64,000 nucleotides of DNA from an uncultured Gemmatimonadaceae bacterium (GTDB taxonomy: Bacteria; Gemmatimonadota; Gemmatimonadetes; Gemmatimonadales; Gemmatimonadaceae): positions 128,001 through 192,000 of the forward strand of contig CAWAGQ010000010.1 in NCBI GenBank assembly GCA_963781585.1, written 5' to 3'. Positions 852-54,264 of the stretch are shown one piece after another (position 1 is the stretch's first letter; each line of letters starts with the position of its first letter). The notes below the pieces were generated by a model. It did no database searches. It was not told the origin of the DNA and saw nothing but the letters and a program-made list of their open reading frames with translations. The position numbers and the translations under genes are program-made.

Positions 852-912
852 GTGGACGGCGGCTGGTTGACGTACAGGACCGCCGATCCCCGGGACCACG
901 CATCGAGCCGAT

Positions 913-1422: not shown

Positions 1423-1661
1423 CGGTCCCTCCCAGTCGTTGATCCTGCTTCCCCCGGTCCGTCACTCCTGTACTCCCACGATGATCCTCCTTCGAGCGCC
1501 GGGGAGTCGGGAAGACCTGAACAGCGGGTAAGAGTATCTTGCCCATACGAATGGCGTTGAAGGGTCCGGAGCGGAGGCCCGGCACGGGCGTCTTCCCTGA
1601 CGCGTCGAAGGAGTTCCGCCGACATTACGGGGCGGGGTCTCCAGTGGAACGTTCACCAGAG

Positions 1662-3551: not shown

Positions 3552-3564
3552 GGCTGGCAGCCTT

Positions 3565-3602
3565 GTCAGCGCGCGGTAGCCGCGCCGTCAGAGTGCTGTC
3601 AG
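3565..3602. promoter_or_regulatory. candidate OmpR/PhoB-type tandem binding site
   Basis: GTCAG at 3565, 3587, 3598 and GTAGC at 3576: 11-bp period, upstream of the HK/RR pair. Confidence 0.45.
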
Positions 3603-3683
3603 CGGGCCCGATTCTGCTGAAGGCTCGTCCTTACGAGGGTCCCTCGGTCTTTCGTCGGCCCGTCTGACACCGTAGCGTGGACC

Positions 3684-5429: not shown

Positions 5430-6124
5430 CCGGCATCCTCATCGTGGAAGACAACGAGACCCTCGCACTGGGCCTCCGTGGAAACCTCGCGTTCGAGGGA
5501 TACGACGTCCTCGTGGCGCACGACGCGACCGCCGGGCTGCGCCAAGTCCGCGAGCACCGCCCCGATCTCATCATCCTCGACCTGATGCTCCCCGACCGGG
5601 ACGGCTATCGGGTGCTCCGCGAGTTGCGGGAGGCCGGTGATGCGACCCCCATTCTGGTCCTCACTGCGTTAGGCAGCGAGGCCGACAAGGTGCGCGCGTT
5701 CCGGTTTGGGGCGGACGATTACGTGACGAAGCCGTTTGGCATCATGGAGCTGCTCGCACGCGTCGACGCGCTGCTGCGCCGAGCGACAAACGGACGCGGG
5801 TCCCGCGCATCGGCGTCTCCCGCCATCGCGTTCGGCGACGTGCGCATTGACCCGGCCACGCGCACGGCGACGCGCGGGGGCGCGGACGTGGCGCTGCGAC
5901 CGCGGGAGTTCGACCTGCTGCTCGCCCTCGCACGGCGACAAGGACGCGTGGCCGGACGCGCCGAACTGCTGCGCGAAGTCTGGGGATACGACGATTCGGT
6001 CCTGAGCCGGACAGTGGACACCCACATCTCGGAGCTCCGGCGGAAGCTCGAGCGTGATCCGGCCGATCCCCGGCACATTCTCACCGTGCTCAAATCCGGA
6101 TACCGCCTGCGGCTCGATCCATGA
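5426..6124 (+). CDS. OmpR-family response regulator
   Basis: ILIVED, LIILDLMLP, DDYVTKPF, winged helix RTVDTHISELRRKLE; GTGA overlap with HK. Confidence 0.95.
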   Translation: MTGILIVEDNETLALGLRGNLAFEGYDVLVAHDATAGLRQVREHRPDLIILDLMLPDRDGYRVLRELREAGDATPILVLTALGSEADKVRAFRFGADDYVTKPFGIMELLARVDALLRRATNGRGSRASASPAIAFGDVRIDPATRTATRGGADVALRPREFDLLLALARRQGRVAGRAELLREVWGYDDSVLSRTVDTHISELRRKLERDPADPRHILTVLKSGYRLRLDP

Positions 6125-6298
6125 TGCTGCTGTCGAAGCGCTGACAGAGCCCGGACCTGGCCCGGACCGACGAAACGGCCCGCCGGTGCGAATATGGTAT
6201 CGGTCGCCGCGTGATCAGCACGCGGCATTCAGCTCTCAGCAGTCCGCTGGCGGCGGCTGACCTGTGACGCTTGCCCCCGTGACCTTGGCCCGGGCCTC

Positions 6299-7759
6299 AT
6301 GACCCTGTTCACGAAACGATCGGTCGCCGAGCTGCAGGTGGAAGCGGACCGTGGCATCCTCCGCCGGTCGCTTGGCCCGATGCACCTCACGGCCCTCGGC
6401 ATCGGGTCCATCATCGGCACGGGCATCTTCGTGCTCACCGGAACCGCCGCGTCGCAGAACGCAGGTCCGGCCCTCGTGATATCGATGGTCATCGCCGCCA
6501 TCGGCTGTGCGTTCGCAGGCCTCTGCTACGCCGAGCTCGCGTCGATGATCCCGGTCGCGGGCAGCGCCTACACCTATGCCTACGCGACGATCGGTGAGCT
6601 GTTCGCGTGGATCATCGGATGGGACCTCATCCTTGAATACGCCCTCAGCGGCTCCACGGTGGCGGTGGGCTGGTCTGGTTACCTCGTGAGCTTTCTCCAC
6701 GGCCTGGGCGTCGACATGCCCGCCGCGTTGACCGCGGCGCCCGGCAGTCCGGTCGTCACGTCCGCCGGCACGGTGACCGCGGTCTTCAATCTCCCGGCAG
6801 CCGTCATCATCGTGCTCGTGTCGTCCCTGCTCACGATCGGGATTCGCGAGTCGGCCGGCACCAACACGGTTCTGGTGGTGATCAAGAGCAGCGTGCTGGT
6901 GCTGTTCGTGGCGGTGGGCGCGGCGTTCGTGCGACGCGAGAATCTCACGCCGTTCGTGCCGCCCAACACCGGGACGTTCGGCGAGTTCGGTCCGAGCGGC
7001 ATCCTCCGCGGCGCGGCGGTCATGTTCTTCGCCTACATCGGATTCGACGCCGTTTCCACCGCGGCGCAGGAGGCGCGCGATCCGCAGCGCGACATGCCCA
7101 TCGGCATCCTCGCGTCCCTGGCCATCTGCACGGTCCTCTACATCGCCGTGGCAATCGTCGTCATCGGCATCGTGCCATATCGGGAACTGAACGTGCCCGA
7201 TCCGCTCGCCGTCGGCATCGACCGCACCGGACTCCTCTGGTTGAGCCCCATCATCAAGGTCAGCGCGCTGTTCGGGTTGTTCAGCACCATCCTGGTCGTG
7301 CTGCTCGGACAATCGCGCATCTTCTATTCCATGAGTCGGGATGGGTTCCTGCCCGACCTGTTCGCCCGCGTCCATCCCCGCTTCCGCACCCCCCATCTCA
7401 GCACCATGGTCACCGGTACGGTCGTCGCGTTAGGCGCGGGACTGCTGCCGCTCAAGCTGCTGAGCCAGCTGGTGAGCATGGGCACGCTGCTGGCGTTCGT
7501 TCTGGTGTGCATCGGCATCGTGGTCCTCCGGAGAACGGCGCCCGCCCTGCCTCGTCCCTTCCGGACGCCAGCCGTCCCATGGATCCCCGCGCTCGGCGCC
7601 CTGATCTGCTTCGTACAGATGCTGGGGCTGCCCTGGGCCACCTGGGAGCGGCTCATCGTCTGGCTGATCGCCGGCCTCGTGCTCTACACGACCTACGGAC
7701 GCCGCCGCGTTGCCGCCCGCCGCACCCCGCGGGAATCGGTCGGCGTCCAGTCTGCCTGA
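6299..7759 (+). CDS. amino acid permease (APC superfamily)
   Basis: GSIIGTGIF, YAELASMIPVAGSAYTY, FFAYIGFDAV; about 12 TM. Confidence 0.95.
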   Translation: MTLFTKRSVAELQVEADRGILRRSLGPMHLTALGIGSIIGTGIFVLTGTAASQNAGPALVISMVIAAIGCAFAGLCYAELASMIPVAGSAYTYAYATIGELFAWIIGWDLILEYALSGSTVAVGWSGYLVSFLHGLGVDMPAALTAAPGSPVVTSAGTVTAVFNLPAAVIIVLVSSLLTIGIRESAGTNTVLVVIKSSVLVLFVAVGAAFVRRENLTPFVPPNTGTFGEFGPSGILRGAAVMFFAYIGFDAVSTAAQEARDPQRDMPIGILASLAICTVLYIAVAIVVIGIVPYRELNVPDPLAVGIDRTGLLWLSPIIKVSALFGLFSTILVVLLGQSRIFYSMSRDGFLPDLFARVHPRFRTPHLSTMVTGTVVALGAGLLPLKLLSQLVSMGTLLAFVLVCIGIVVLRRTAPALPRPFRTPAVPWIPALGALICFVQMLGLPWATWERLIVWLIAGLVLYTTYGRRRVAARRTPRESVGVQSA

Positions 7760-31035: not shown

Positions 31036-31602
31036 ATGGCAATTCCAGCTACCCAGATTCGTCGTGGGATGGTGCTCGTCTTCGACGGAGATCCATGCCG
31101 CATCGTCGAGTTTCGTCACCACACGCCCGGCAACCTGCGCGCGATGGTGCAGGCCAAGCTCAAGAACCTCCGGACCGGATCCAATTTCGAGCATCGGTTT
31201 CGCGCTGACGACTCCGTCGAAAAGGCGTCCATGGAGACGCACGAGCTGGAATTCCTGTACCAGTCGGGCGAGCTGTACCACTTCATGAACACGGAGAACT
31301 ACGACCAGCTCGAGATGGACACGGAGACGCTGGGAGACTACGCCCAGTGGATGGTGCCGAACATGCGGATCATGGCCGAGTTCTATGACGGGCGACCGAT
31401 CGGCATCACGCTTCCGGGCGCGCTCACCTTCGAGATCGTGGATACGTCGCCGGTGATGAAGACGGCCACGAAGACGGCATCGTTCAAGCCGGCGACGCTG
31501 GAGAACGGTGTCACGATCAACGTGCCGGAGTTCGTGCCCGCCGGCGTGCGGGTGCGGGTCAACCCGAATACCGGGGAGTACCTCGATCGCGCGAAGGACT
31601 GA
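31036..31602 (+). CDS. efp: elongation factor P
   Basis: HTPGNLRA loop, FMNTENYDQ, KPATLENG, VPEF, TGEY. Confidence 0.95.
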   Translation: MAIPATQIRRGMVLVFDGDPCRIVEFRHHTPGNLRAMVQAKLKNLRTGSNFEHRFRADDSVEKASMETHELEFLYQSGELYHFMNTENYDQLEMDTETLGDYAQWMVPNMRIMAEFYDGRPIGITLPGALTFEIVDTSPVMKTATKTASFKPATLENGVTINVPEFVPAGVRVRVNPNTGEYLDRAKD

Positions 31603-31781: not shown

Positions 31782-31856
31782 GGTGACTGTAGCTCAATCG
31801 GTTAGAGCACCGGACTGTGGCTCCGGGGGTTGCGGGTTCGATTCCCGTCAGTCACC
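31782..31856 (+). tRNA. tRNA-His(GTG)
   Basis: G-1, acceptor GTGACTG/CAGTCAC, anticodon arm CCGGA-CTGTGGC-TCCGG, TTCGA loop. Confidence 0.95.
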
Positions 31857-31947
31857 CTGGGGAGTCGAGGGGTAGCGGTGGTGGGAGCAGGAATGCGCGA
31901 TGGCGTCTGCGCGCCTGGGTGTCATTCCGCGCATCCGGAGCGACGAT

Positions 31948-32020
31948 AGGTCGGTAGCTCAACTGGTAGAGCACTGGTCTCCAAAACCAGCGGTTGGGGG
32001 TTCGAGTCCCTCCCGGCCTG
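31948..32020 (+). tRNA. tRNA-Trp(CCA)
   Basis: Acceptor AGGTCGG/CCGGCCT, CTGGT-CTCCAAA-ACCAG. Confidence 0.95.
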
Positions 32021-32109
32021 CTACGCAATCATGAGGTCAGCGATCAGCGGTCAGTCATCCGTTCTTGGAGATCGGCGGTCGCATGGGAGCAATCCAGTGC
32101 CACGGGTTG

Positions 32110-32182
32110 GGCGGTATCGTCTAGAGGCCCAGGACACAGCCCTCTCAAGGCTGGAACACGGGTTCGAATCCCGTTACCGCTA
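32110..32182 (+). tRNA. tRNA-Glu(CTC)
   Basis: Acceptor GGCGGTA/TACCGCT, CAGCC-CTCTCAA-GGCTG. Confidence 0.95.
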
Positions 32183-32254
32183 TGTAGCGAGATGGACCAC
32201 GTCGGGAGGCGCATCGGGCGCGCACGTCGGCGCGTGGGCGGCGCGTTCACCGAG

Positions 32255-32326
32255 GGCCCCATCGTCTATCGGTTAGGACGGCACTCTTTCAAGGTGCAGA
32301 GACGGGTTCGACTCCCGTTGGGGCCA
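32255..32326 (+). tRNA. tRNA-Glu(TTC)
   Basis: Acceptor GGCCCCA/TGGGGCC, GCACT-CTTTCAA-GGTGC. Confidence 0.95.
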
Positions 32327-32366
32327 TGACGGGACGCGGTGTCGTCAGGTGCAGGTCGAGGAAGTT

Positions 32367-32440
32367 GGGGCTGTAGCTCAGCTGGTTAGAGTGCCGGTCT
32401 GTCACACCGGAGGTCGCGGGTTCGAGCCCCGTCAGCCCCG
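32367..32440 (+). tRNA. tRNA-Asp(GTC)
   Basis: Acceptor GGGGCTG/CAGCCCC, CCGGT-CTGTCAC-ACCGG. Confidence 0.95.
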
Positions 32441-32446
32441 TCGGAG

Positions 32447-32535
32447 CAGCATTCAGTGTTCAGCGAGCAGCATTCAGATTCAGCTATCAGCGAGCAGCAT
32501 TCAGATTCAGCTATCAGCGAGCAGCACTCAGCATT
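32447..32535. repeat. CAG-initiated 6-7-mer tandem repeat with an exact 27-bp duplication
   Basis: 13 units (cagcatt, cagcgag, cagctat...); cagcgagcagcattcagattcagctat at 32461 and 32488. Confidence 0.85.
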
Positions 32536-32604
32536 CCGCGTTGTGCGAGGAGCATTCCGCTTGGCACGGTGCGATCTGATCGCTGACCGCTGTCACTGTG
32601 ATTC

Positions 32605-32686
32605 GCCCTGGTGGTGAAATTGGTAGACACGCCATCTTGAGGGGGTGGTGCCGAAAGGCGTGGCGGTTCGAGTCCGCCCCAGGGCA
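32605..32686 (+). tRNA. tRNA-Leu(GAG)
   Basis: Acceptor GCCCTGG/CCAGGGC, CCATC-TTGAGGG-GGTGG, long variable arm. Confidence 0.95.
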
Positions 32687-32716
32687 TAACGGGAGTGACC
32701 TCCGACCTGCAGTGAC

Positions 32717-32788
32717 GCCAGCGTAGCTCAGTGGTAGAGCACCCGATTCGTAATCGGGCGGTCGTCGGTTCAATCCCGACCGCTGGCT
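32717..32788 (+). tRNA. tRNA-Thr(CGT)
   Basis: Acceptor GCCAGCG/CGCTGGC, CCCGA-TTCGTAA-TCGGG. Confidence 0.95.
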
Positions 32789-32793
32789 CTGAC

Positions 32794-41273: not shown

Positions 41274-42987
<1,714 letters not shown>

Positions 42988-42991
<4 letters not shown>

Positions 42992-43437
42992 GCTACCTCC
43001 ACCAGTTCACCGATGCGTTGCTGGCCGTCGGACGGTTCCGTCGCCACTTCGCGATCCGACGTTGCAATATACTGCTCGAACTTCGCGCGCTCGATATACC
43101 AAACGCCTTCGTGCTTCTGCGCGCCGATCGAATCGGGCTTGTGTTTGCAGAGCCACCGCAACGTGCTCACGGGCATGCCACAAATCGCGTGCACATCCGC
43201 GATCGTCAGGTGAAGCCGGGTATCCCTGGCAGTGTTGATGGCTTCCGTGAGTTCACGAACACAATTGGCAAGTGTCATGACGGCGTCCGAGCCGGGCGAT
43301 CGTCGGCGAAGCACGACAAGTTCCGCGTCCCACTGGCGGAGTAGCGATATGGCAGGGCCCGCGACGATGAGGGTTGGCGCGCCAAGCCCCACGAACTCAC
43401 GAGTCGTCTCATTGGTGCCACGCGCAGTATCGACCAT
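42988..43437 (-). CDS. excisionase-like HTH protein
   Basis: LTIADVHAICGMPVSTLRWLC...GAQKHEGVWYIER (MerR/HTH_17-like); GTGA coupling to the integrase. Confidence 0.65.
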
Positions 43438-43604: not shown

Positions 43605-43997
43605 ATGGCCACTTCAGTGCTACCCCAATCAGCTATCGCAAAGGGCGACGAGATATCTCCGGCGGTTAGCGTGAGCGGTGGAACGCTCGCGCGACAGGCG
43701 ACTCGGCGCAGTTGTACCAAGCTGATCCGATTCACAGCAGAGGAACTCAACGTGGTCATGGCGCGAGCGGCGGCCACTGGACGCCCAGCTGCGTGCTTCA
43801 TCCGTGAGAGTGCGATGGGTCAGAAGCCGAAGGCCAGGATCGGCACGCTCGGCGACGCAGTGGTTCATCAACTGGGACGGGTTGCCATGCGCTTGGAGGA
43901 ACTCTCTGTCGCTGCCAAAACCGCCGGGCTCACGAACGCAGCGGAGTTTGACGCAGTCGTTCGCGATTTGCTCGACACCATCCGAAGCATCGACTGA
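43605..43997 (+). CDS. mobC: MobC-like relaxosome accessory protein (RHH)
   Basis: LIRFTAEEL...RAAATG....FIRE...HQLGRV; directly upstream of a relaxase. Confidence 0.75.
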   Translation: MATSVLPQSAIAKGDEISPAVSVSGGTLARQATRRSCTKLIRFTAEELNVVMARAAATGRPAACFIRESAMGQKPKARIGTLGDAVVHQLGRVAMRLEELSVAAKTAGLTNAAEFDAVVRDLLDTIRSID

Positions 43998-44023: not shown

Positions 44024-44256
44024 ATGATCGCCGTTTCGAGCAAGAGCCGTAGCTTCGAGTCCCTCGGCAAGTATCTCGTCAATGCGAAAGATGGCGACGA
44101 GCAGGATCGCGTCGCGTGGAGCGCCTCTCGCAACCTGCCGACGGACGATCCGGAACTCGCGGCCAGGATCATGCGGGCAACAGCGGCGCAGAACGTTCGA
44201 GTCGACCAACCCGTCTATCACCTCACAATCAGCTTCGATCCCGGCGACCCTGTCGG
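44024..44256 (+). pseudogene. relaxase (MOBP/VirD2-like) N-terminal fragment
   Basis: SFESLGKYL (motif I Tyr), PVYHLTISFDPGD (motif II); ends before the HxH motif III. Confidence 0.8.
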
Positions 44257-44952
44257 GTCGCACACGATCAGGTCCCAACGGCAGTCGGGAACCGCGAGCT
44301 TGACCTGCACATCTTCGTCACGGGACAGCTTGTCGAGACGTGCGATCACGAGGTTGTTTTCGAGGAACCAGTTTCCCGTCCGCGCGGCTTCCAGCTTGTC
44401 GTTCGTCAGAATCTCAAACGGGAGGTGGAAGCGGCGGAATAGCTCGTCCTGCCACTGCTCCGCGAGACTACCTGGACAGACGATGAGACAGCGTTGCAAA
44501 TCACCACGCGCGAGGAGTTCCTTGATGAACAGGCCCGCCATGATCGTCTTGCCGGCACCGGGATCGTCGGCGAGAAGGAATCGGAGCGGCTGGCGCGGCA
44601 ACATTGCTTCGTATACCGCTGTGATCTGGTGGGGAAGCGGGTCAACGAGTGAGGTATGGACGGCGAGTACCGGGTCGAACAGGTGCGCCAGCCGAATTCG
44701 GTGGGCCTCAGACACGAGCCGAAAGAGCTCGCCGTCGCCGTCAAAGCTCCACGCGCGTCCCTGCTCGACTACTTCGAGCCGTGGCTCGTCGTGCCGATAC
44801 AGAAGCTGATTCGCTACGCGACCGGCCGGGTCCTTGTACGTGAGTTCGAGCGCCTCGGATCCGAACCACTGGACGTTCACGACCGTGACGATGCAGTCCG
44901 GGAGGACGCCGCGGACGGAGGCGCTTGGCTGCAGGTCCTGAAGCTTGCTCAT
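44257..44952 (-). pseudogene. SNF2-family helicase N-terminal fragment
   Basis: PLPHQITAV, RFLLADDPGAGKT, CPGSLAEQWQDEL; breaks at WDLIVCD just before EAH. Confidence 0.88.
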
Positions 44953-46022
44953 CGGCGAGCGTCGCGAGCCGCGACCATCGTGATGAAAGCGTAGACGTAC
45001 GGGCCGCGCCGTGCCGCGTGGACACGGATTGGGAGCGCCGGCAGCGCGCCCGTCGACGAGTCTTCCCACCAACTTTGATCTTCCTGAGCGGTGAGGTCGG
45101 TTTCCGTCGCCGACTCGAACGCCTTGTAGAGAACAGAACGCTGCGGCACGCGCATGTTCGGCCTGATCGCGAATCCGGCGTCGTCGGCGAACTCGTTTGG
45201 CACCACCTTCACCGCGCGGAGCTTCGCCGTCGGTCCGGGGGCGAAGGCGAAGCTCTGCTGCCCCGAACGGCGGAAACGATCTTCGGCCCTCTTGAAGGCC
45301 ATCTCTGCTTCAACGAGCAACATCGGCCGATCCTGCAAGTGCAGGCACGCCATCCCTGACGCGAAGATGCTCGGCGTGGGATCGATCGTTGCCCGCGCGG
45401 CCTCAAGAGCGCGAAAGGTCACGCCATGCTCACCGATGGCTGCATCCAGCATGGGCCGGAACAAGGGCTCGTAGAAAGCTAGATGTCCGGCGACGTGATC
45501 GACTACGGTCTCGATCGGATCCTTCTTCACTTCCGTGAAGGTGGGAGTCCGTCGGAATCCTGTGAATGCGAGCTGAGCGGGATGGAGCACGAGATGTGTG
45601 ATCTCGTGCCACGCCGTGAAGTAAGCCCGTGCGGCGCGGGTTCCCCGAGCGTCCACAATCGCGAGATAGCGGGGCCGGTGGAGGTCTTCGGTCTCTCGTT
45701 CGAGCGTTATGCCTTCCGTCGTGTCCTTCACGAATTCCTGTTCCAGCTGCCGACTGAGGGCCGAATGGAATTCAGCGAACTTCGACGCGATAGTCCTCAC
45801 ATCCTCGTCAGATCGGATGTAATCGACTCGCACCCGGTACTTGTGGGAGAGTACGCCGAGGAGCGCACCGAGTGACTCGACCGGTATTGGCGCGTTCTCG
45901 ACGATGCTCCGGACCTGGTCCAACGCGAAGCGTCGGATGGCGGCGAGGCAATCGCCGCGCGTGCTTAACCCGAGCTCTTTGGCTAGAGTCACAACGCGTG
46001 GGTGGCGTGCGATCGGGGGCAT
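44949..46022 (-). CDS. IrrE/ImmA-family Zn metallopeptidase (CapP-like)
   Basis: RAYFTAWHEITH HExxH, downstream DPIE; follows an XRE gene; start could be 46073 or 46091. Confidence 0.75.
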   Translation of the reverse strand: MPPIARHPRVVTLAKELGLSTRGDCLAAIRRFALDQVRSIVENAPIPVESLGALLGVLSHKYRVRVDYIRSDEDVRTIASKFAEFHSALSRQLEQEFVKDTTEGITLERETEDLHRPRYLAIVDARGTRAARAYFTAWHEITHLVLHPAQLAFTGFRRTPTFTEVKKDPIETVVDHVAGHLAFYEPLFRPMLDAAIGEHGVTFRALEAARATIDPTPSIFASGMACLHLQDRPMLLVEAEMAFKRAEDRFRRSGQQSFAFAPGPTAKLRAVKVVPNEFADDAGFAIRPNMRVPQRSVLYKAFESATETDLTAQEDQSWWEDSSTGALPALPIRVHAARRGPYVYAFITMVAARDARR

Positions 46023-46048
46023 CGTGCTAGCGGAAGTGGCCGCTGCCG

Positions 46049-46498
46049 CTAACGCGGCGACTGCCTGAGCCATTCGTGTAGACGCCTCCACTGCTCCTTC
46101 GAGTAGGGGCGAGCATTGTCATCACCTCCGGGCGACCCACTGCGGCGTGCGACCACCATTCCGCGTGCGCTAAGGAGCTGGCGCGCCTCCTGAAGGGACA
46201 AGTTCTCCTCTTCGGCGTACGTGGCCAACTCGGACGGAATCACTACTGGCTCTCGCTTCGGCCCGCGTGGAAGCTCTCCCTTGACGAGGTAATCCAGTGT
46301 CGTCTCTAGTGCGTCCGCCAAGCGCATAAGAGCATCGGCGCCCGGCTTTCGATGGCCGTTCTCCACCTCGCTAATGAAGGTGACGCTTATCTCTGCGTTC
46401 TTGGCCAGCTCTTGTTGCTTCAGCCCACGCTTTTCGCGGAGGTCTGCAACCCGGGCGCCGAGCGTTGCGGGAACGGAGGGTTTGCTGATGTTTGACAT
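46049..46498 (-). CDS. XRE-family HTH regulator (CapH-like)
   Basis: LREKRGLKQQELAKNAEISVTFISEVENGHRKPG...LADALETTLDYL. Confidence 0.92.
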   Translation of the reverse strand: MSNISKPSVPATLGARVADLREKRGLKQQELAKNAEISVTFISEVENGHRKPGADALMRLADALETTLDYLVKGELPRGPKREPVVIPSELATYAEEENLSLQEARQLLSARGMVVARRSGSPGGDDNARPYSKEQWRRLHEWLRQSPR

Positions 46499-46535
46499 TT
46501 ACAGTATGCGCTAGTAGCTTACCGTATGATGTAAG
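46492..46535 (+). promoter_or_regulatory. sigma70 promoter with operator repeats for the Ubl operon
   Basis: TTGACA(46492)-N17-TAGCTT(46515); TTAC[A/C]GTATG at 46499 and 46519; CTTAC-N8-GTAAG 46518-46535. Confidence 0.7.
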
Positions 46536-46630
46536 TCACCGAAGGCGATCGTATCAAAGATGCACGAAGGCCGACCGGGTGGCAAGGAACTTCAACGTGG
46601 GTTGCGCCGTTCGGCGCGGAGGATTCGAAA

Positions 46631-46942
46631 ATGGGTGAACAGGCGAGTGCAGGGGGAGCAGGGGCTGGAGTCGCGCCGCACGGCAACAGTGGCCAGGGCG
46701 ACGGTCACCGGCAGGATGTTGTCGAGATCACGATCAACAACAAGCCGTACCAGATCCATCGCGGTCGGCAGACGGTCCTCGCCATCAAGACGCTGGGCGG
46801 CGTTCCGCAAGCCGATGAACTTGCGCAGGTGGTCGAGGGAAACACGCCTCCGTTGACGCCACTCAAGGATGACGGCAGCGTGACCATCAAGGGCGGCGAG
46901 ATCTTCGTCTCCTACCCGAGGGACAGCGGGTCCTCCAACTGA
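46631..46942 (+). CDS. bubA: ubiquitin-like protein (multiubiquitin domain, BubA-like)
   Basis: ITINNKPY...TVLAIKTLGGVP...L...L.DD..VTIKGGEIFVS beta-grasp pattern; tail RDSGSSN. Confidence 0.8.
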   Translation: MGEQASAGGAGAGVAPHGNSGQGDGHRQDVVEITINNKPYQIHRGRQTVLAIKTLGGVPQADELAQVVEGNTPPLTPLKDDGSVTIKGGEIFVSYPRDSGSSN

Positions 46943-46944
46943 CG

Positions 46945-47283
46945 ATGTCGTTTCCAGGCGAACAGGTGGCGGAGCTGAGCGCGCTATACCCCGGACTCCA
47001 GCAGGCGACGGAGGCCGGGGTGCTCTACTTCTTGATCCCCAGCCTCGCGCTCCCGGCCGGATGTTCCGCGGCAAGCGTGGACGCGCTCCTATGTCCGACT
47101 CAAAGGGAAGGGTACGAATCCCGGCTGTTTCTCTCGAAACAGATTACCTGTGCGGCCACTCGGAATTGGAACGCATCGAACATTCGCGTTCTGGAGCGTA
47201 ACTGGTTCGCGGTATCGTGGAAGACGCGTTCGGGGTTGCGACTCGCGCAGATGGTAAGCGCGCACATCGAGGCGTTTCGCTGA
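46945..47283 (+). CDS. bubB: prokaryotic E2-like protein (BubB-like)
   Basis: YFLIPSLALPAG, DALL.P...GY, RNWFAVSW; between the Ubl and E1 genes. Confidence 0.72.
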   Translation: MSFPGEQVAELSALYPGLQQATEAGVLYFLIPSLALPAGCSAASVDALLCPTQREGYESRLFLSKQITCAATRNWNASNIRVLERNWFAVSWKTRSGLRLAQMVSAHIEAFR

Positions 47284-48689
47284 TGACGATGAGACGAGGT
47301 AGAATAGCGAGGCACGTCGCGCGCGACGCGCACACATACAGCGAGCCCCCCGTCGGCGCCGCGATTCTGCGGATCCCGAACACGATCGCCGACCGAGTTC
47401 GGGACGACCTGCGGCGGCCCCATCGATTCGCGGCGGAGCGCATCGGATTTCTGAGCGCGGCGGTCGGGCCCACTGAGGCCGGCCTCGTGATAGTCGCGGC
47501 GGAGTATTACACCGTCGCCGACGAGCACTACGTTCCCGGGCGTGGAGCCGGTGGTCGCATTGGTGTCCAGGCGATCCGAGAGGCAATGACGCGCGCGATC
47601 GCGTCTGGCCTCGGCATCTTCCATGTGCATCTCCATGAGCACAGCGGGGTCCCGTCGTTCAGCCCCACCGACCGCGCCGAGCAGACGCGCCTCGTGCAGA
47701 GCCTGAACGCTGCCTCTCCAAACCGGCCGCACGGCATGATCGTGCTTAGCGCCGACGGTGCGAATGCTTGGATATGGATGCCTGGCGAGACGGTACCGTC
47801 CGTTCCTGCGCGCCTGGCGTTGGTCGGCTACCCGATGCACTTGGTTGGCGGCGCCACTCGGCGTCGGAACCGCCGAGCGGGCGATCGGTACTCTCGACAG
47901 TCGTTCCTCGGGCCCGAGAGTGAAGAGCAGCTTGGTACCGTTCGGATCGGATTGCTGGGATTCGGCGGCGGCGGGTCACACGTGGGTCAGCAGCTTGCTC
48001 ACCTCGGCGCGGAGAGCGTACGCGTTGCAGATGGTGACCGAATCGACGATTCGAACCTGAATCGGCTCGTCGGTGCGACCGCGGGCGACGTCCGCGCCAA
48101 GCGCCTCAAAGTCGATATCGCAAGGCGCATCGTCTCTGCGGTGAACCAGCAAGCGGACGTCATTACACATGACGGGCCCTGGCAGGAGCGTGCCGACCTG
48201 TTCCGCTCCTGTGACATCCTCGTTGGGTGTGTCGACTCGTTCAAGCAGCGGCAAGAAGCCGAGGTGCTCGCTCGGCGCTTCGCGATTCCATACATCGACA
48301 TTGGCATGGACGTTCATCAGGTCGACGACGATCCGCCGCGCATCGGCGGTCAGCTAATACTGTCGATGCCGGGCGGCCCCTGCATGACCTGTTTCGGATT
48401 CCTCACGCCAGAAAAACTCGCGAGCGAGGCGGCGCGGTACGGCGATGCGGGCGGTCGGCCGCAGGTCGTCTGGCCGAACGGAGTCCTCGCGTCCTCAGCC
48501 GTCGGCGTTATCGTTGATCTCGTGACGGGCTGGACGCGGATGCGAGATCGGATCGTGTACCTCTCGTACGACGGGAATCTTGGGACGCTCACGGATCACG
48601 TTCGCCTGCGCCACCTTCGATGGAGTTCGTGCCCGCACTTTCCGGAGGGCGCGGTCGGGATGCCGCGATTCACGCCAGCGCGAGCGTAG
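47283..48689 (+). CDS. JAB-like peptidase fused to ThiF/E1 adenylation domain (BubCD-like)
   Basis: ERIGF...HLH...SPTD; GFGGGGS, DGD....SNLNR, GCVDS, CMTC, CPH; TGATG coupling. Confidence 0.85.
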   Translation: MTMRRGRIARHVARDAHTYSEPPVGAAILRIPNTIADRVRDDLRRPHRFAAERIGFLSAAVGPTEAGLVIVAAEYYTVADEHYVPGRGAGGRIGVQAIREAMTRAIASGLGIFHVHLHEHSGVPSFSPTDRAEQTRLVQSLNAASPNRPHGMIVLSADGANAWIWMPGETVPSVPARLALVGYPMHLVGGATRRRNRRAGDRYSRQSFLGPESEEQLGTVRIGLLGFGGGGSHVGQQLAHLGAESVRVADGDRIDDSNLNRLVGATAGDVRAKRLKVDIARRIVSAVNQQADVITHDGPWQERADLFRSCDILVGCVDSFKQRQEAEVLARRFAIPYIDIGMDVHQVDDDPPRIGGQLILSMPGGPCMTCFGFLTPEKLASEAARYGDAGGRPQVVWPNGVLASSAVGVIVDLVTGWTRMRDRIVYLSYDGNLGTLTDHVRLRHLRWSSCPHFPEGAVGMPRFTPARA

Positions 48690-48776
48690 CGTAGCGCATT
48701 GGTCCGACGAATCCACTCGCGCTCGACGTACTGACACGCATTTCGTAGCCAACCAGTTTCGAGAGGACAGGCCTGG

Positions 48777-50780
48777 ATGTGGTCCGATAACGAAGCCGAA
48801 ATCGACCTCCTCAATGTTGAACACCTTGTTGGTGCGGTTCTCCGCGTCGTCAGGGATGATCGCCTCGACCCAGTCACGGTCGGTGTATACGGCGACTGGG
48901 GAAGCGGGAAGTCCAGCGTTATCCAGCTACTTCGTCAGCGCATCGCGACGGAGCCGGATCTACTCGCCGTGTACTTCAATGGATGGCGTTTCGAGGGCTA
49001 CGAGGACGCTAAGGCGGCGTTGGCCTCGACCATACTGGAGCAGATCCAAGAGGAAGCGGCGAAGCCGAACGGCGGGAAGTTTGCTCGGGCGAAAGACGCA
49101 GTCGTTGCTGCAGTGAGCGGCCTCTGGGATCGCGTGGACAAATTGCGGTTGAGCAAGCAGGCGCTGACAGTCGGTGCAAACGCCGGGCTCGCCGCTGGAG
49201 CGCTGGCAATCGGCGCTACGGCAGCTGTGCCAGTTACTGCGGCCGCGATCTTCGGCGTCGTGGTCAAGTCATTGCTCCACTCCGGTAAGGAGATCGACGG
49301 CGAGAAGCTCGCCGAACTGATCAAGGAGCGTGAAAAGGCCGAATCGAAGGACCAGCGCGACATGCACGTCTCGGTGCGGGACTTCCACAAGGAGTTCGCC
49401 AAGCTCGTTGCGCAGCTCGGCGTCAAGCGGCTTGTCGTGATAGTTGACGATCTCGACCGGTGCCTTCCGCACAACGTTATCGAGACTCTCGAGGCGATCC
49501 GGCTCTTTCTGGCTGCGCCGAAGACTGCCTTCGTCATCGCGGCCGACGAAGCGCTGATTCGGGAGGCCGTCGGGTATCGGTTTGCTGAACCGACGCCGGT
49601 GCTTGGAGCCGAGGGACGCCCGCGAGCGTCGATCGGAGCGCGTTATCTGGAGAAATTGATCCAGGTGCCAATCCGGGTTCCTCCCTTGTCACGGAGCGAC
49701 CTACACGGGTACCTGAACCTCCTCTTCGCGGAGGAACGGTCCGCGAATGCGGCCAGCTTCGCGCAGCTCGCCGGGCGCGTGCGCAGCGCGTCATCCTACG
49801 ACGTCATCTCGTTCCATCCGGGCAACGCTGAGAATCTCTTGGGAGGGCCGATCAGCGATGACCTCAAGGCGGATTTCGTCTTGGCCGAACAGATAGCTCC
49901 GGTGCTGGCACTCACGGCGGAAGGAAACCCGCGCCAGACGAAGCGGTTTCTCAATGCACTCGTCTTACGGTTGGAGATGGCCCATGCTCGCGGCATGACG
50001 CTTGATCGCCAGGTAGCAGCGAAACTTCTACTTCTCGAATACTTCTTGCCCGAGCTGTTTCGCTCGCTCGCCCTTGAGGTTGCGGCCAACGAGGGGCAGT
50101 CCCCATCACTGGCAGCTCTTGAGGCAGACGCGCGAACGATTGGTACGACTGCGGGCGGCGGTGTGCGAGACGGCGTCGGGACCGGAAGCACCTTCGCGAC
50201 GCAGGCGGCGGCAATGCGGGCAAGCGACCGGTTCCTCACTTGGGTGCGTACGGACCCTGAACTCGGAAATCTGGATTTGCGGCCGTACGTGTATTTCGCA
50301 AGCGAGCGCTACGCGCTGCCCGTCGGTGTGGCGCAGCGATTGAGCCCATCCGGAGCCCGGGCGCTTCAGGACCTGCGCTCAGATAGCGAGGCGCTGCACC
50401 AGAAGGCTGCCGAGGCCGCAACAGGTCTCCCGCTTCCTGAGCTAACCGCAATCATCGGCGAGTTGACTGCCTACGCTCGAACGGGTCGAGTTAACCTCGA
50501 TGAGCGTACGTCACCACTCTCGGCGATGGTCGAAGTCGCCAAGCGCCGCCCTGACGTCGCTCCTGACGTTCTTGCGTCGATTCTCGGCCTGCCATCCGAC
50601 ATGGTGCCGGTTGCGGCTCCGGTGCTCGTAAATGCTCTCGGCAGCGTCGCTGGTATGCGGGACGCCGCGACGAGCGCTCTTGAGACGCTTGCTTCCTCAC
50701 CGAACAAGGCGGTCAAGGCTGCGGCCGAGGGTCGCCTTCGGGCCGTGCGTGACGGGTCAGCCGCGAATCGGGGGCGGTAG
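48777..50780 (+). CDS. qatA: QatA KAP-family P-loop NTPase
   Basis: MWSDNE...DLLN, GDWGSGKSS, VIVDDLDRC, YLEKLIQVP, GNPRQTKRFLN. Confidence 0.9.
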   Translation: MWSDNEAEIDLLNVEHLVGAVLRVVRDDRLDPVTVGVYGDWGSGKSSVIQLLRQRIATEPDLLAVYFNGWRFEGYEDAKAALASTILEQIQEEAAKPNGGKFARAKDAVVAAVSGLWDRVDKLRLSKQALTVGANAGLAAGALAIGATAAVPVTAAAIFGVVVKSLLHSGKEIDGEKLAELIKEREKAESKDQRDMHVSVRDFHKEFAKLVAQLGVKRLVVIVDDLDRCLPHNVIETLEAIRLFLAAPKTAFVIAADEALIREAVGYRFAEPTPVLGAEGRPRASIGARYLEKLIQVPIRVPPLSRSDLHGYLNLLFAEERSANAASFAQLAGRVRSASSYDVISFHPGNAENLLGGPISDDLKADFVLAEQIAPVLALTAEGNPRQTKRFLNALVLRLEMAHARGMTLDRQVAAKLLLLEYFLPELFRSLALEVAANEGQSPSLAALEADARTIGTTAGGGVRDGVGTGSTFATQAAAMRASDRFLTWVRTDPELGNLDLRPYVYFASERYALPVGVAQRLSPSGARALQDLRSDSEALHQKAAEAATGLPLPELTAIIGELTAYARTGRVNLDERTSPLSAMVEVAKRRPDVAPDVLASILGLPSDMVPVAAPVLVNALGSVAGMRDAATSALETLASSPNKAVKAAAEGRLRAVRDGSAANRGR

Positions 50781-50782
50781 CT

Positions 50783-51736
50783 GTGGGCACCTCGACATCC
50801 AATCCAGGACCAATGGGACGCCCGTCGCTGCTACCGCCTTGGGCACCAGCCGCCGACGTCGGGGATGCTGGCGAAGGCGACCACGATCAAGGCGGCCAGC
50901 CGGACGATGGCAGCGCGAACGACGATGGACAGGGTGGAGCCAGTTCCGGTGATGTCGGCGCCGATTCGACCGGCACGGGGAGTGAGGCGGCTGGGCCTCC
51001 GTCGTGGATGTCGGTTCGTCGGCTCGTCGGAGCTGCGGGCTCAGGTCGCGCAGGGGGTCACCGAGGACGCGACAACCTGCATCGGGCGGTGCGGCGCTCA
51101 GTCGGTGCCATGGGCGGGCGCCGCGCAGCGGCGCACAGTGCGGTGGCTGGCCGCCAGACGGCCGGCCGGTTCGCGAGCTTTCTCGCTGGCGTCGCGGCCG
51201 GCGGCGTCGAGGCGGCGGCGGGGGCGCTGGGGATCGCCGAGCACCTCGGCGGAAGCGCGGATGTGTTCCTTCTTCACCTCGCCGACGCGCTTGCGCCGGC
51301 CGGCGCGCTGACGGAGGAAGCGATTGCACGAGACGCAATGGACGCCACGCTGATGGATCTGTATCAGCAGCTCAACATCGATGCCGACGGCGTCGTCGCC
51401 CTCGAGCGATTGTCCGCCGCGATGATGGCAGGGGCACTCGTCCAGTACGTGATCAATTACATCCATGCACGCGTGATCAATGCGCTTGCGGCGCACCTCC
51501 ATGCTTCTTCTTCAACGGTTAGCCGAATCGGAGACGCCGAGCGAACGGCCCGACGGTATATCGAGAGTGTGGTGCGGCAAGACATTGACACAAGCGCCTT
51601 CTTCGGCTCGAACGGTCAGTTACTCGCAGACCGATGGGACGCGGCTGCAGGCCAACGGATCATAAACCGCCTCTTTGAGGAAGCCTATCGAGTGGTTGAA
51701 GCTGGTCTGGCTCAATCACCGAGGGGGAGCGCGTGA
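50783..51736 (+). CDS. qatB: QatB
   Basis: N-terminal MGTS, LLPPWA; position between the KAP NTPase and QueC-like genes. Confidence 0.8.
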   Translation: MGTSTSNPGPMGRPSLLPPWAPAADVGDAGEGDHDQGGQPDDGSANDDGQGGASSGDVGADSTGTGSEAAGPPSWMSVRRLVGAAGSGRAGGHRGRDNLHRAVRRSVGAMGGRRAAAHSAVAGRQTAGRFASFLAGVAAGGVEAAAGALGIAEHLGGSADVFLLHLADALAPAGALTEEAIARDAMDATLMDLYQQLNIDADGVVALERLSAAMMAGALVQYVINYIHARVINALAAHLHASSSTVSRIGDAERTARRYIESVVRQDIDTSAFFGSNGQLLADRWDAAAGQRIINRLFEEAYRVVEAGLAQSPRGSA

Positions 51737-53139
51737 CGGCGCGTACGGCGTCTGCCATCCCGACCTATCGCGTGCTCCTCCGCGCCGGCGCCTCCGACGC
51801 AGCCAGCGTCGTCCCGAAGACGGGCGATATTCTGGTGGGACTCCGCATGGATGGTGCTCCCGGTGACGATGCCTCGCGGGTCGACGAATCGGTTTGGGAT
51901 ACCCTCTGGGCATTTGGATTGCGTCCGTCACAGCACGCCACCGACTTCTTCCGCGTGGCGACAGCGGCCTACTGCGCCGACCTTCTGATCCCGCACGAGA
52001 CCGCATTCGATCGCTGGTCGCGCGCGATCAGCCTGCACGTACCTGTCAGCGATCCGGCGCGTTGGCGCTCGGTCGAGGCGCCGCTTCGCGAAATGCTGGG
52101 CTTCCTCACCGGAGACCATTGGACGTTTGACTTCCGCGCGGTAGCTGTAGCACCACCTACGGGTCATGCGCACTTGCGGGGCCGATATGGCCCCGTCCGC
52201 GCAAGTCGGGTGAGCCTGCTGTCTGGCGGCCTCGATTCCGCCATTGGGGCCGCCGACCTGATCGACGCCGGAGAACAGGTGGCATTCGTTAGCCACAACG
52301 CCAAGAGTGGGGGCGCGGTCTTTTCGAGCCCCTCGCAGCGCGCTGTGCTCGACGTGCTTCGGCCGAGCGGGGTCGTGGGCCAAGTACATCACTTGCGTTT
52401 TCGGGTCAACCCGCCTGCCCCCATCCAAGGGATCACCGCTGCCGTCACGACGACCCGCAGTCGGTCGATCATGTTCTTCGCACTCGGTTTACTCGTGGCA
52501 AGCGCGTTGGACGCTGTTCAGCGCGACGGCCCGATCCCGCTCGTGATCCCGGAGAACGGATTGATTTCACTCAACGTGCCGCTCACGAAGGCACGGCTGG
52601 GAAGCTGGAGCACTCGTACGACTCACCCTCACACACTAGCGACGCTTCGGCTCGTGCTGGCTGGTCTCGGCCTCACGACGCCGCTCGTAACGCCGTATGC
52701 TACTGCGACGAAAGGCGAGGTCCTGGCATCGCTCGTCGCGCGAGGCCGCGAACGGGCAGAATTGCTAACCGCGGTGACTGTCTCGTGTGCCCACCCAAAC
52801 CAGAGCAGATTCTTGGAGCCTGGACGCCGCCAACCCCACTGTGGAACCTGCGTTCCGTGCATCATTCGACGTTCCGCCACGCAGCACGCGGGAATCGATG
52901 ACGCCAGATACAGCTTCAACCTGCCATCTGAGCTCACTGTCCTGCGGCGTGGTCGCGCCGAAGACCCGTCTGCATTCGCATATGCGCTGGCGACTCGTCG
53001 TCGACCGGCCCGGCCGCTCGACATCAACCTGGCCGGCCCTCTGCACGTCGATACTGATAATGACTTGCGCGCCCTTCTGCGGGTATTCGACGCCGGCATG
53101 GATGAGGTTGCGCGGTTTCTGGGCGTCGAAATCCGCTAG
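51733..53139 (+). CDS. qatC: QatC QueC-like protein
   Basis: LLSGGLDS, RSRS..F, PENGLISLN, STRTTHP, TKGE, SCAHP, HCGTCVPCIIRR. Confidence 0.92.
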   Translation: MTARTASAIPTYRVLLRAGASDAASVVPKTGDILVGLRMDGAPGDDASRVDESVWDTLWAFGLRPSQHATDFFRVATAAYCADLLIPHETAFDRWSRAISLHVPVSDPARWRSVEAPLREMLGFLTGDHWTFDFRAVAVAPPTGHAHLRGRYGPVRASRVSLLSGGLDSAIGAADLIDAGEQVAFVSHNAKSGGAVFSSPSQRAVLDVLRPSGVVGQVHHLRFRVNPPAPIQGITAAVTTTRSRSIMFFALGLLVASALDAVQRDGPIPLVIPENGLISLNVPLTKARLGSWSTRTTHPHTLATLRLVLAGLGLTTPLVTPYATATKGEVLASLVARGRERAELLTAVTVSCAHPNQSRFLEPGRRQPHCGTCVPCIIRRSATQHAGIDDARYSFNLPSELTVLRRGRAEDPSAFAYALATRRRPARPLDINLAGPLHVDTDNDLRALLRVFDAGMDEVARFLGVEIR

Positions 53140-53145
53140 CTGCCG

Positions 53146-53946
53146 ATGCCCCCCGCGCCAACCCGGTCGGCCCGCCTCGTCGACACGCATTGCCATGTCG
53201 ACCTCTTCTCCGATCCGGCCGGTGTGGTGCGTGAGACTGAAAAGCACCAGGTCTACACCATCGCGGTAACCAACACACCGTCGGTATTCTCACATCTGTG
53301 CGGAATCATCGGGAACTCCCGATTTGTGCGACCAGCCTTGGGGCTGCACCCGGAGCTCGCACCGCAGCGCCATCGTGAACTGTCGCTCTTCACCGAGTTA
53401 CTTCCACAGACCCGCTACATCGGCGAGGTCGGGCTCGATTATCAGACCACCGCCGAATCCGAGCGTGTCGTGCAGCGACGGGTCCTAACCACCATCGTCG
53501 AGCAGTGCGACGCAGTCGGCGGAAAGATCGTTACGGCGCACAGTCGGCGCGCAGCCGAGGACGTAGTGTCTGCGTTCGGTGAAGGGTTCCGAGGCGCGTA
53601 CATCTTGCACTGGTATTCGGGAGCAGTGCGAACTCTCAAGCGCGCGGTTGCCAACGGCGCGTACTTCTCGGTCAACCCTGCAATGATGCGCTCCGATCGC
53701 GGACGAACGTTGGTGTCTCAGGTGCCGCGAGAGCGCGTACTCACCGAGACGGACGGGCCATTCGTATCCGTCGACGATGCACCAGCGTTGCCATATCAAG
53801 TCCACCTTGTGGTAGACGAGTTGGCGCGACTCTGGGGTGTTTCGCCCGATGAGGCGCGCAGTACCGTGCGCCAGAATCTGTCAGCCGTGCTGCGCGGTCG
53901 CGACGGCCGTTCCGACGGAGGTATCAATGAGCGGGGCGAGCTGTGA
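53146..53946 (+). CDS. qatD: QatD TatD-family nuclease
   Basis: DTHCH, GLHP, IGEVGLD, HSRRA, LHWYSG, ETDGPF. Confidence 0.92.
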   Translation: MPPAPTRSARLVDTHCHVDLFSDPAGVVRETEKHQVYTIAVTNTPSVFSHLCGIIGNSRFVRPALGLHPELAPQRHRELSLFTELLPQTRYIGEVGLDYQTTAESERVVQRRVLTTIVEQCDAVGGKIVTAHSRRAAEDVVSAFGEGFRGAYILHWYSGAVRTLKRAVANGAYFSVNPAMMRSDRGRTLVSQVPRERVLTETDGPFVSVDDAPALPYQVHLVVDELARLWGVSPDEARSTVRQNLSAVLRGRDGRSDGGINERGEL

Positions 53947-54145: not shown

Positions 54146-54250
54146 CTTCCCAAGCTGGACGTCGCCGGTTCGAGTCCGGTCGCCCGCTCTCCCCAAGTGC
54201 TCGATCTCGACCCACCGCCGATCGCCGGAATCCCAACGGATCCCGGCGAT
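54146..54250 (+). repeat. attR direct repeat (displaced tRNA-Gly 3' half plus hairpin)
   Basis: Copy of 41304-41408; begins at the anticodon arm; no 5' tRNA half. Confidence 0.95.
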
Positions 54251-54264
54251 CTCTGCGTGAGGGC

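Follow-up and report, generated by a model that had tools for sequence, protein, structure and literature searches.

Background

The question raised by this locus is what kind of system is formed by three tightly coupled genes for a ubiquitin-like protein (Ubl), an E2-like protein and a fusion of a JAB peptidase with an E1 enzyme, which lie at positions 46,631 to 48,689 of a 64,000-nucleotide stretch from an uncultured Gemmatimonadaceae bacterium (GenBank assembly GCA_963781585.1, contig CAWAGQ010000010.1, positions 128,001 to 192,000; the whole stretch is hereafter referred to as the window). An earlier note on this DNA had likened the layout of the three genes to the Bub family of bacterial ubiquitination operons. 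The present analysis suggests, with a probability of roughly 0.72, that the cassette is a self-contained Ubl-conjugation module and a sister of Type I Bub without BubE, carried on an integrative element under a divergent CapH/CapP-like switch.

Type I Bub (formerly 6E.1/DUF6527) is defined by BubAB, BubCD and BubE, the last being a DUF6527 serine protease, and all Bub operons are reported to encode BubE (Ye, Gong, Chambers and Corbett, bioRxiv 10.1101/2024.11.21.623953; hereafter the Bub preprint). The reference Type I system is BubAB-BubCD-BubE of Citrobacter sp. RHBSTW-00271 (PDB 9ea4, 9ea8 and 9eae). The published catalogue of 544 operons was seeded on DUF6527, and in at least 31 Type I rows of its Table S1 the Ubl and the E2 are encoded separately, always together with a DUF6527 gene (Bub preprint).

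Organisation and conservation of the cassette

The cassette consists of the following genes:

46631..46942, forward strand, Ubl gene (BubA-like), 103 aa
46945..47283, forward strand, E2-like gene (BubB-like minimal UBC fold), 112 aa
47283..48689, forward strand, JAB-E1 fusion gene, 468 aa

The three open reading frames (ORFs) with these coordinates and this strand, the gap of 2 bp between the Ubl stop and the E2 ATG and the TGATG overlap between the second and the third gene had all been described in the earlier note and were confirmed on the sequence. The first two genes are in different frames; the JAB-E1 frame is open from 47217, the ATG at 47283 being the one that overlaps the E2 stop, and a GGAGGA Shine-Dalgarno sequence is located 7 nt ahead of the Ubl ATG. 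Pfam and PADLOC scans found no family of CD-NTases (cGAS/DncV-like nucleotidyltransferases), thiamine synthesis or molybdopterin synthesis among the scanned ORFs of the island that carries the cassette, as the earlier note had also observed.

Conservation was examined in a survey of related loci, of which 80 were kept. A Ubl homologue is present upstream of JAB/E1 in 75 of the 80 loci and an E2-like gene in 77, the order being the same throughout (Ubl, E2-like, JAB/E1), and the loci without a Ubl or an E2-like gene include contigs that break off at the cassette (L061-L063). In 49 of 77 related loci JAB and E1 form one protein, and in the other 28 they are encoded separately. The feature is thereby confirmed as real and well conserved.

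The JAB-E1 fusion

The third protein is made up of two domains:

JAB-E1 residues ~1-190, JAB/JAMM peptidase domain with E52, H116, H118, S127 and D130
JAB-E1 residues ~195-468, ThiF-type E1 domain with a GxGGGGS loop, R205, D250, K276 and D318

The fusion proposed in the earlier note is borne out by a Pfam ThiF match at 2e-25 (residues 206-442), by invariant JAMM residues and by the closest solved relative, Citrobacter BubCD, which is found at 9e-16 with the single sequence and at 2.3e-25 with the family profile. The alignment with BubCD spans the JAMM motif, where the residues of the site pair with HxH...D in BubCD, and continues into the adenylation domain; MoeB follows at 3.7e-17, and ThiF and MccB are also among the solved relatives. 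The matches to the PADLOC 'E1-E2' models are weak (best 2.4e-9) and confined to the nucleotide-binding region. Among 32 homologues, E52, H116, H118 and D130 of the JAMM site are invariant and S127 is kept in at least 90%, while R205/Q206, the G226-S232 loop, D250, N260/R261, K276 and D318 are invariant in the E1 domain.

Four further residues of the E1 domain are conserved, namely C367 and C370 at the start of the crossover loop, which are invariant, and C450 and H452, which are also kept. They presumably correspond to the structural zinc site of MoeB and ThiF, and by this analogy a structural zinc site is their likely function. The crossover loop itself carries Tyr386 in all 32 sequences, at the position of the Tyr that is conserved in this loop among six DUF6527-linked Type I BubCDs. 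The equivalent Y370 of Citrobacter BubCD is reported to be essential (Bub preprint).

The E2-like protein

The E2-like protein is barely accessible to sequence searches. Pfam (even at E-values up to 10), NCBIfam and PADLOC gave no match or chance-level matches only, and searches of the PDB with the single sequence and with a profile had the same outcome, BubB being unreachable by sequence. The AlphaFold2 (AF2) model of the protein (predicted local distance difference test, pLDDT, 92.8; predicted template modelling score, pTM, 0.85) consists of one helix, a beta-meander and one C-terminal helix. Its top Foldseek match is Citrobacter BubB (9eae_C; template modelling score, TM, 0.75), and VIA-align matches it to the same chain with a Z of 12.3 and a root-mean-square deviation of 3.0 over 111 of 112 residues, the next rows (canonical E2, UEV and Cap2 folds) having a Z of 6.9 or below. 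The UBC fold, on which the earlier note had made its reading depend, is thus present in the model. A profile-profile comparison of the family with six E2s from DUF6527-linked Type I operons gave a probability of 94.6% (E-value 7e-8) over the first 50 columns. As plain sequence searches gave nothing, the tie to BubB is visible through structure and this profile-profile comparison only.

According to the Bub preprint, Citrobacter BubB depends on its Ser for activity, which is lost in the S333A/H335A double mutant, and the motif residues of the Type I E2 are S333, H335 and D299. In the family studied here, Ser91 is present in 78 of 78 E2-like sequences. VIA-align pairs residues 1-112 of the model with residues 239-357 of the chain, with one model residue unaligned, and from these ranges BubB S333 falls within model residues 87-95, where Ser91 is the sole conserved nucleophile. 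In addition, a DUF6527-linked relative (L131) has WFSWH at the site of the AVSWK of the family, which bridges the Ser-x-His motif of Type I and the motif of the family. Ser91 is therefore predicted to occupy the catalytic position of BubB S333. At position 93, two residues after the Ser, the four commonest residues are K, Q, R and N; the DUF6527-linked Type I E2s read WSRH and L131 reads SWH. The other conserved positions are His107, which is near-invariant (75 of 78) and lies in the following helix, and Y57, W75 and W87, which are invariant.

Two other candidates for the active site were ruled out. Cys50 is a Cys in 70 of 78 sequences and an Arg in 6, and with eight sequences lacking it a catalytic role was discarded; S105-A-H107 does not represent a BubB-type Ser-x-His, position 105 being A, L, S or M across the family. 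When the family and the Type I E2s were aligned with MAFFT over their C-terminal halves, NWN of the family was paired with RWS of Type I; this alignment was unreliable and was left unused.

The ubiquitin-like protein

The Ubl gives a Pfam Multi_ubiq match with an E-value of 8.3e-5 and 23.2 bits, slightly under the cut-off of 24.5 bits, and its relative at locus L014 matches the same family at 2.7e-17. An AF2 model, built with an alignment of 25 relatives, has one beta-grasp domain at residues 30-96 (block pLDDT 80-93), preceded by a Gly/Ala-rich N-terminal tail (residues ~1-29) that is disordered in the model. The top Foldseek matches are the Bub multi-ubiquitin proteins 9d5b, 9d59, 8u38 and 9cd2, the target TM against BubA residues 155-229 (9ea8_B) is 0.74, and ubiquitin and ThiS folds rank lower. 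The beta-grasp fold, the absence of which the earlier note had named as fatal to its reading, is accordingly found. Across the family the Ubl ranges from 67 to 294 aa and contains one to three domains.

The C-terminus of the Ubl is unusual. Of 76 family Ubls, 64 terminate in Ser and 6 in Ala; the chain stops right after an [S/A/D][S/A] pair in 68, and 54 end in Ser-Ser. The remaining eight, including that of the window, have one to seven residues beyond the pair, the protein of the window ending in ...DSGSS-N, that is, one residue (Asn103) past Ser-Ser. The upstream Gly is not universal, since three relatives read DSASS at this point. In L014 (positions 6015-6977, in a Chitinophagales metagenome-assembled genome), which is the only one of the 77 loci with an E2-like match in which the Ubl and the E2 are naturally fused, the junction reads ...SGGSS-SIIPHEQ.... 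In the six DUF6527-linked Type I Ubls, by contrast, a Gly is located at the C-terminus or fusion junction or close to it, and the Citrobacter Ubl is cleaved after a conserved Gly (Bub preprint).

As read from the genes, the Ubl would thus end in a conserved Ser or Ala, a feature that is shared by no published Bub. Either the E1 would activate a C-terminal Ser or the JAB peptidase would trim the protein back to a Gly. To our knowledge, no E1 activates a Ubl ending in Ser.

Such a terminus is atypical for a Ubl and, together with the CxxC and CxH residues kept as in ThiF and MoeB and the presence of MoeB, ThiF and MccB among the solved relatives, it raises the alternative that no conjugation takes place. 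The E1 would then adenylate a Ser-ended protein for sulfur-carrier thiocarboxylation of the ThiS/MoaD type or for a modification resembling that of MccA by MccB, and the E2-like protein would be an inert RWD-like adaptor. Iyer et al. (2006; PMC1779556) indeed read the E2-like domains of their class 6e as inactive for lack of the Cys; this class likewise combines a Ubl, as a polyUbl or on its own, with a Cys-less E2/RWD-like protein and a fusion of JAB to E1. However, the structural twin of the E2-like protein, Citrobacter BubB, is active through a Ser (Bub preprint), and an invariant Ser91 and Tyr386 are hard to square with an inert adaptor. The fusion of JAB to E1, the island without any cofactor-biosynthesis or peptide-export genes and the mobile, patchy distribution also speak for conjugation, and the alternative is considered improbable. 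The operons of class 6e differ from the cassette in having a metal-binding protein 'Y' (Cx3C...Hx2C), which is absent here; 'Y' is equated with DUF6527/BubE because the 6E operons were later named DUF6527 operons.

Relationship to the Bub operons

DUF6527 (PF20137) has no match in the genome of the window, which is 93.5% complete. Three of five other cassette-bearing genomes are also without DUF6527 anywhere. The remaining two do have a DUF6527 gene: in one genome it is on a different contig from the cassette; in the other it is part of a distinct E2-E1 (Type II) operon at a distance of about 110 kb. The tblastn similarity of these two DUF6527 operons to the E1 of the window is weak at most, with an E-value above 1 in one and 0.008 in the other. 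As a positive control, the DUF6527 search finds 26 of 401 Bacteroidota genomes.

The JAB-E1 sequences are separated along the same line. Six DUF6527-linked Type I BubCDs score 96-195 bits against the family profile, and the 120 family members listed score 441-1063 bits with a single-sequence query. A quick maximum-likelihood tree (IQ-TREE) of 32 family sequences, the six BubCDs and three Type II E1s, with long branches, places the 32 family JAB-E1s on one side of a branch (Shimodaira-Hasegawa-like approximate likelihood ratio test, SH-aLRT, 99) and the six BubCDs on the other (92), the Type II E1s being outside. The upper end of this Type I range, 195 bits, is reached by the JAB-E1 of L131. 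In that locus (G114:C1:2606500-2613500, genes at 485-4502, reverse strand), a 521-aa extra gene lies between the JAB-E1 and the 174-aa DUF6527 protein.

In view of the absence of DUF6527, the profile scores and the separate clade, we read the cassette as a BubE-less sister branch of Type I Bub, outside the catalogued members, and not as a case of sporadic BubE loss. A catalogue built from DUF6527 operons cannot contain such a branch. Literature searches, which left most subscription journals outside their coverage, found no paper describing a BubE-less Bub type, and the branch carries no name in NCBIfam or PADLOC.

An ordinary Type I operon that has recently lost bubE and is decaying or incomplete would consist of the same parts, namely JAB-E1, E2 and Ubl; that the Ubl and the E2 are encoded separately would be no obstacle, given the 31 rows of Table S1, and other genes of the island are indeed decayed (the relaxase is truncated and SNF2 is a fragment). 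Yet the three genes are intact with all catalytic residues conserved, and DUF6527 is found in none of 146 downstream ORFs of the related loci (up to the first two ORFs per locus, 75 loci). With the cassette-bearing genomes, the bit scores and the tree on the opposite side as well, recent loss of bubE is regarded as most improbable.

The comparison with known systems supports the kinship with Bub that the earlier note had suggested, over Bil or CBASS (cyclic oligonucleotide-based antiphage signalling system) Cap2/Cap3; the assignment to Bub as published fails on the missing BubE, the Ser-ended Ubl and the missing Ser-x-His. The cassette resembles Type I Bub in the fusion of JAB to the E1, in the intact JAMM site, in the invariant Tyr of the E1 crossover loop and in a minimal UBC-fold E2 that lacks the C-terminal helix pair and has an invariant Ser where other E2s carry Cys. 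Further common traits are a Multi_ubiq-type beta-grasp Ubl, frequent CapH and CapP regulators and a location on mobile elements. The cassette differs in having no BubE/DUF6527, in a Ubl that ends in Ser/Ala where that of Type I ends in Gly, in an E2 that has H107, Y57, W75 and W87 and no His at Ser+2, and in a crossover loop of the E1 that is about 20 residues shorter and accompanied by the CxxC/CxH set. The Ubl and the E2 are separate proteins here and fused in BubAB, although Table S1 indicates that fusion is no strict criterion.

Type II Bub (6E.2; BubA, BubBD and BubE) has a Multi_ubiq-type Ubl and cysteine-free chemistry (Bub preprint), the latter being expected for the cassette by analogy; unlike the cassette, it is described as having no JAB, an E2 fused to the E1 and a BubE. 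Bil (bacterial ISG15-like) Types I and II (BilA-D), as outlined in the Bub preprint, agree with the cassette in a stand-alone Ubl, E2, JAB and E1 and no separate effector, tagging itself being the defence in Bil. Bil differs in its large IAD-AAD-CYS E1, separate JAB gene and Cys-based E2, whereas the cassette has a single ThiF-type E1 domain of about 270 aa fused to JAB and an E2 in which the Cys is not conserved. Type II CBASS (Cap2/Cap3) shares enzymes of the E1 and JAB types and control of the CapH/CapP type; in contrast, the modifier in CBASS is the CD-NTase and a Ubl is lacking, the E2 precedes the E1 in a single fused protein, the JAB is separate and the chemistry is Cys-based.

Distribution and genomic neighbourhood

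Relatives of the JAB-E1 number at least 3,554 proteins in a metagenome protein collection and 391 in a collection of species genomes, where they are spread over many phyla including Gemmatimonadota, Bacteroidota, Verrucomicrobiota, Planctomycetota, Acidobacteriota and Cyanobacteria/Melainabacteria. Among 41 related genomes, a family-level match is present in one, the window's own, as a single copy. Family members also occur on plasmids of Alphaproteobacteria, and two relatives were found among 377 pattern-matched viral stretches of IMG/VR. The distribution is thus patchy and horizontally moved.

A four-gene split form is present on a conjugative plasmid of Bosea vaviloviae (NZ_CP017148.1, 266586-269020; L135), where a multiubiquitin protein, hypothetical proteins of 109 and 172 aa and a 299-aa ThiF protein are encoded, annotated as 'multiubiquitin domain-containing protein', two hypotheticals and 'ThiF family adenylyltransferase'. 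This locus is without the CapH/CapP pair and adjoins a RES-Xre toxin-antitoxin pair and a UvrD/PD-(D/E)XK pair.

The sole recurrent neighbours of the cassette are an M78/ImmA-type (CapP-like) peptidase and an XRE helix-turn-helix (HTH) protein, either separate or fused. Of the 66 loci with enough upstream sequence, 52 (~79%) have the peptidase gene no more than 3 kb upstream, as against an association with such regulators of 31% reported for Bub (Bub preprint). The earlier note had seen no dedicated effector, and the related loci agree: neither ORF clustering in the 80 loci nor an all-against-all phmmer comparison of the downstream same-strand ORFs yielded a conserved fourth gene, small clusters of close relatives being the only groups. 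PADLOC recognises known defence genes among the 146 downstream ORFs in 8 of 75 loci, one of these matches actually being a transposase. The defence neighbours of some relatives are AbiEii, PD-T4-7, HKD plus Snf2 and dCTP deaminase genes.

In four loci from Melainabacteria/Cyanobacteria metagenome-assembled genomes (L056, L058, L061 and L062), the E1 gene is followed immediately and on the same strand by a gene for a 483-aa DACND-DACNH-DAC protein (a DisA-type diadenylate cyclase) and then by one for a GP88-family protein, which may reflect a lineage-specific tie to cyclic di-AMP signalling.

The integrative element and its other genes

The cassette sits on a 12.8-kb integrative element at a tRNA-Gly gene, with the following features in addition to the three genes above:

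41274-41347, tRNA-Gly(CCC), its 3' half overlapped by the left repeat
41304..41412, no strand, left 109-nt direct repeat, putative attL, 97% identical to the right copy
41285-42991, reverse strand, 568-aa ORF adjoining the att repeat, no family match
42988-43437, excisionase-like gene of the HTH_17 family, from the family scan
43605-43997, NikA-like gene, from the family scan
from ~44024, truncated MobA/VirD2 relaxase, first ~58 profile positions only
44218-45072, SNF2/ResIII fragment on the strand opposite to the relaxase remnant
44949..46091, reverse strand, CapP-like metallopeptidase of the ImmA/IrrE type, HEITH visible, PADLOC capP 3.5e-7
46049..46498, reverse strand, CapH-like XRE-family HTH repressor, divergent from the Ubl operon, HTH_3 1.5e-14, PADLOC capH 1e-13
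46499..46630, no strand, divergent intergenic region of 132 bp, presumed promoter/operator, from inspection of the sequence
48777-53946, forward strand, QatABCD, a complete defence system right after the cassette on the same island
54146..54254, no strand, right 109-nt direct repeat, putative attR, end of the 12.8-kb element

The divergent regulator pair, the tRNA-Gly element and QatABCD had gone unnoticed in the earlier note. The two repeat copies are spaced 12,842 bp apart and the guanine plus cytosine (GC) content is lower between them. The 568-aa ORF has no match in Pfam at an E-value of 0.001 (chance-level rows appear up to 1) and none in NCBIfam at 0.1, and it may be an integrase or recombinase of an undescribed kind. 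With only remnants of mobilisation genes, the element looks decayed for transfer. Outside the element, a cluster of seven tRNA genes (His, Trp, two Glu, Asp, Leu and Thr) at 31783-32789 is located just past the gene for elongation factor P (31036-31602).

The CapP-like protein has no Pfam match, and a role as a DNA-damage-activated protease that removes the repressor is putative. A promoter within 46499-46630 is presumed from the divergent arrangement. Scans of 46000-49200 for sigma-70 promoters and intrinsic terminators gave no match, a result that is uninformative for a GC-rich organism, and the short inverted repeats of the intergenic region are unconvincing as an operator.

QatA (KAP NTPase), QatB and QatC (QueC-like) were identified with PADLOC at 1.3e-113, 1.9e-30 and 1.3e-96, respectively, and QatD (53146-53946) as a Pfam TatD_DNase at 1.1e-42. 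The stop of the E1 gene and the start of qatA are only 87 bp apart, on the same strand and island, and the scan found no terminator-like site between them. Such an arrangement, with QatABCD complete, could mean that the cassette is an accessory arm of QatABCD which tags or primes a Qat protein in the way Cap2/Cap3 act on the CD-NTase, the seven genes forming one system. The related loci argue against it: a QatA homologue is present in 0 of 80 and a QatC-like gene in 1 of 80, 4 kb off and on the other strand, while none of the 146 downstream ORFs is a KAP_NTPase. The cassette travels with many different neighbours, and on the alphaproteobacterial plasmids it occurs without Qat, although for the closest relatives the contigs end before any neighbours appear (L001, 3.4 kb). 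The adjacency of QatABCD appears incidental, and a joint system is deemed very improbable.

Proposed mechanism and biological role

The mechanism proposed for the cassette follows Citrobacter Bub by homology at every step. DNA damage or phage infection would activate the CapP-like peptidase, the CapH-like repressor would be removed and the operon would be transcribed. The JAB domain would trim the single extra residue (Asn103) off the Ubl, most relatives being made already mature, and the E1 with ATP would adenylate the C-terminal carboxylate of the Ubl, here that of a Ser. The Ubl would then pass as an oxyester to Tyr386 and on to Ser91 of the E2, which would transfer it to a lysine of the target. 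With no BubE and no separate effector, tagging would by itself constitute the output, as it does in Bil, leaving JAB as the sole candidate deconjugase.

Several points weigh against this proposal. The enzymology of the BubE-less branch is transferred by analogy as a whole, and at its first step the call of CapP in the window is weak. The terminal Ser or Ala of 70 of the 76 Ubls means that the adenylation step may differ or that JAB may remove more of the tail. The E1 could also form a thioester through C367 or C370 in place of a relay through Tyr386. The equation of Ser91 with S333 draws on alignment ranges and one bridging sequence and not on a residue-level superposition, and the His at Ser+2 that is needed in Citrobacter BubB is absent from the sequences of the E2-like family. 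As for defence, known defence genes are infrequent downstream of the cassette, and Bub has never been shown to protect against phage, according to the Bub preprint, which sought such protection and found it for no Bub operon, and to a 2026 paper.

In the cell, the cassette probably serves defence against phage or DNA-damage stress, and this is the weakest link of the reading. With the same enzymology, the cassette might instead serve a general response to DNA damage or stress in which host proteins are tagged, with no antiphage function. The lack of phage protection by Bub, the small number of defence neighbours and the response of CapH/CapP-type switches to DNA damage (Bub preprint) all fit this alternative. 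Against it stand the position of the cassette beside QatABCD on a mobile island, the AbiEii, PD-T4-7, HKD plus Snf2 or dCTP deaminase genes adjoining some relatives, the patchy horizontal distribution and the fact that CapH/CapP and CapW are typical of immune operons. A purely stress-related role is considered rather unlikely.

Conclusion

A BubE-less sister branch of Type I Bub, as preferred here for the cassette, suggests a wider proposal, which is offered tentatively and at somewhat less than even odds. It holds that the branch constitutes a third type of Bub, without BubE, in which the tag would be activated at a C-terminal Ser and passed along an all-oxyester relay (Tyr386, Ser91), with JAB as the sole maturase and deconjugase and a DNA-damage switch for control, and that this type may be at least as common as the catalogued ones, the comparison being one of 391 relatives in species genomes with 544 catalogued operons from differing samplings. 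If true, no other Ubl would be known to date that is conjugated through a Ser at its C-terminus. The Ser terminus calls into question the rule by which Gly is the C-terminal residue that E1 enzymes act on.

Bub is the least understood of the bacterial ubiquitin-like pathways, with its enzymology solved and no known target or phenotype. The branch is a natural test of whether BubE is dispensable and may show what is essential in the active sites, the Ser and the Tyr being kept and the His not. A three-protein version without BubE, with a tightly linked damage-responsive switch, would be simpler to reconstitute and, if the proposal is true, would provide a minimal system for learning the purpose of Bub-type tagging.

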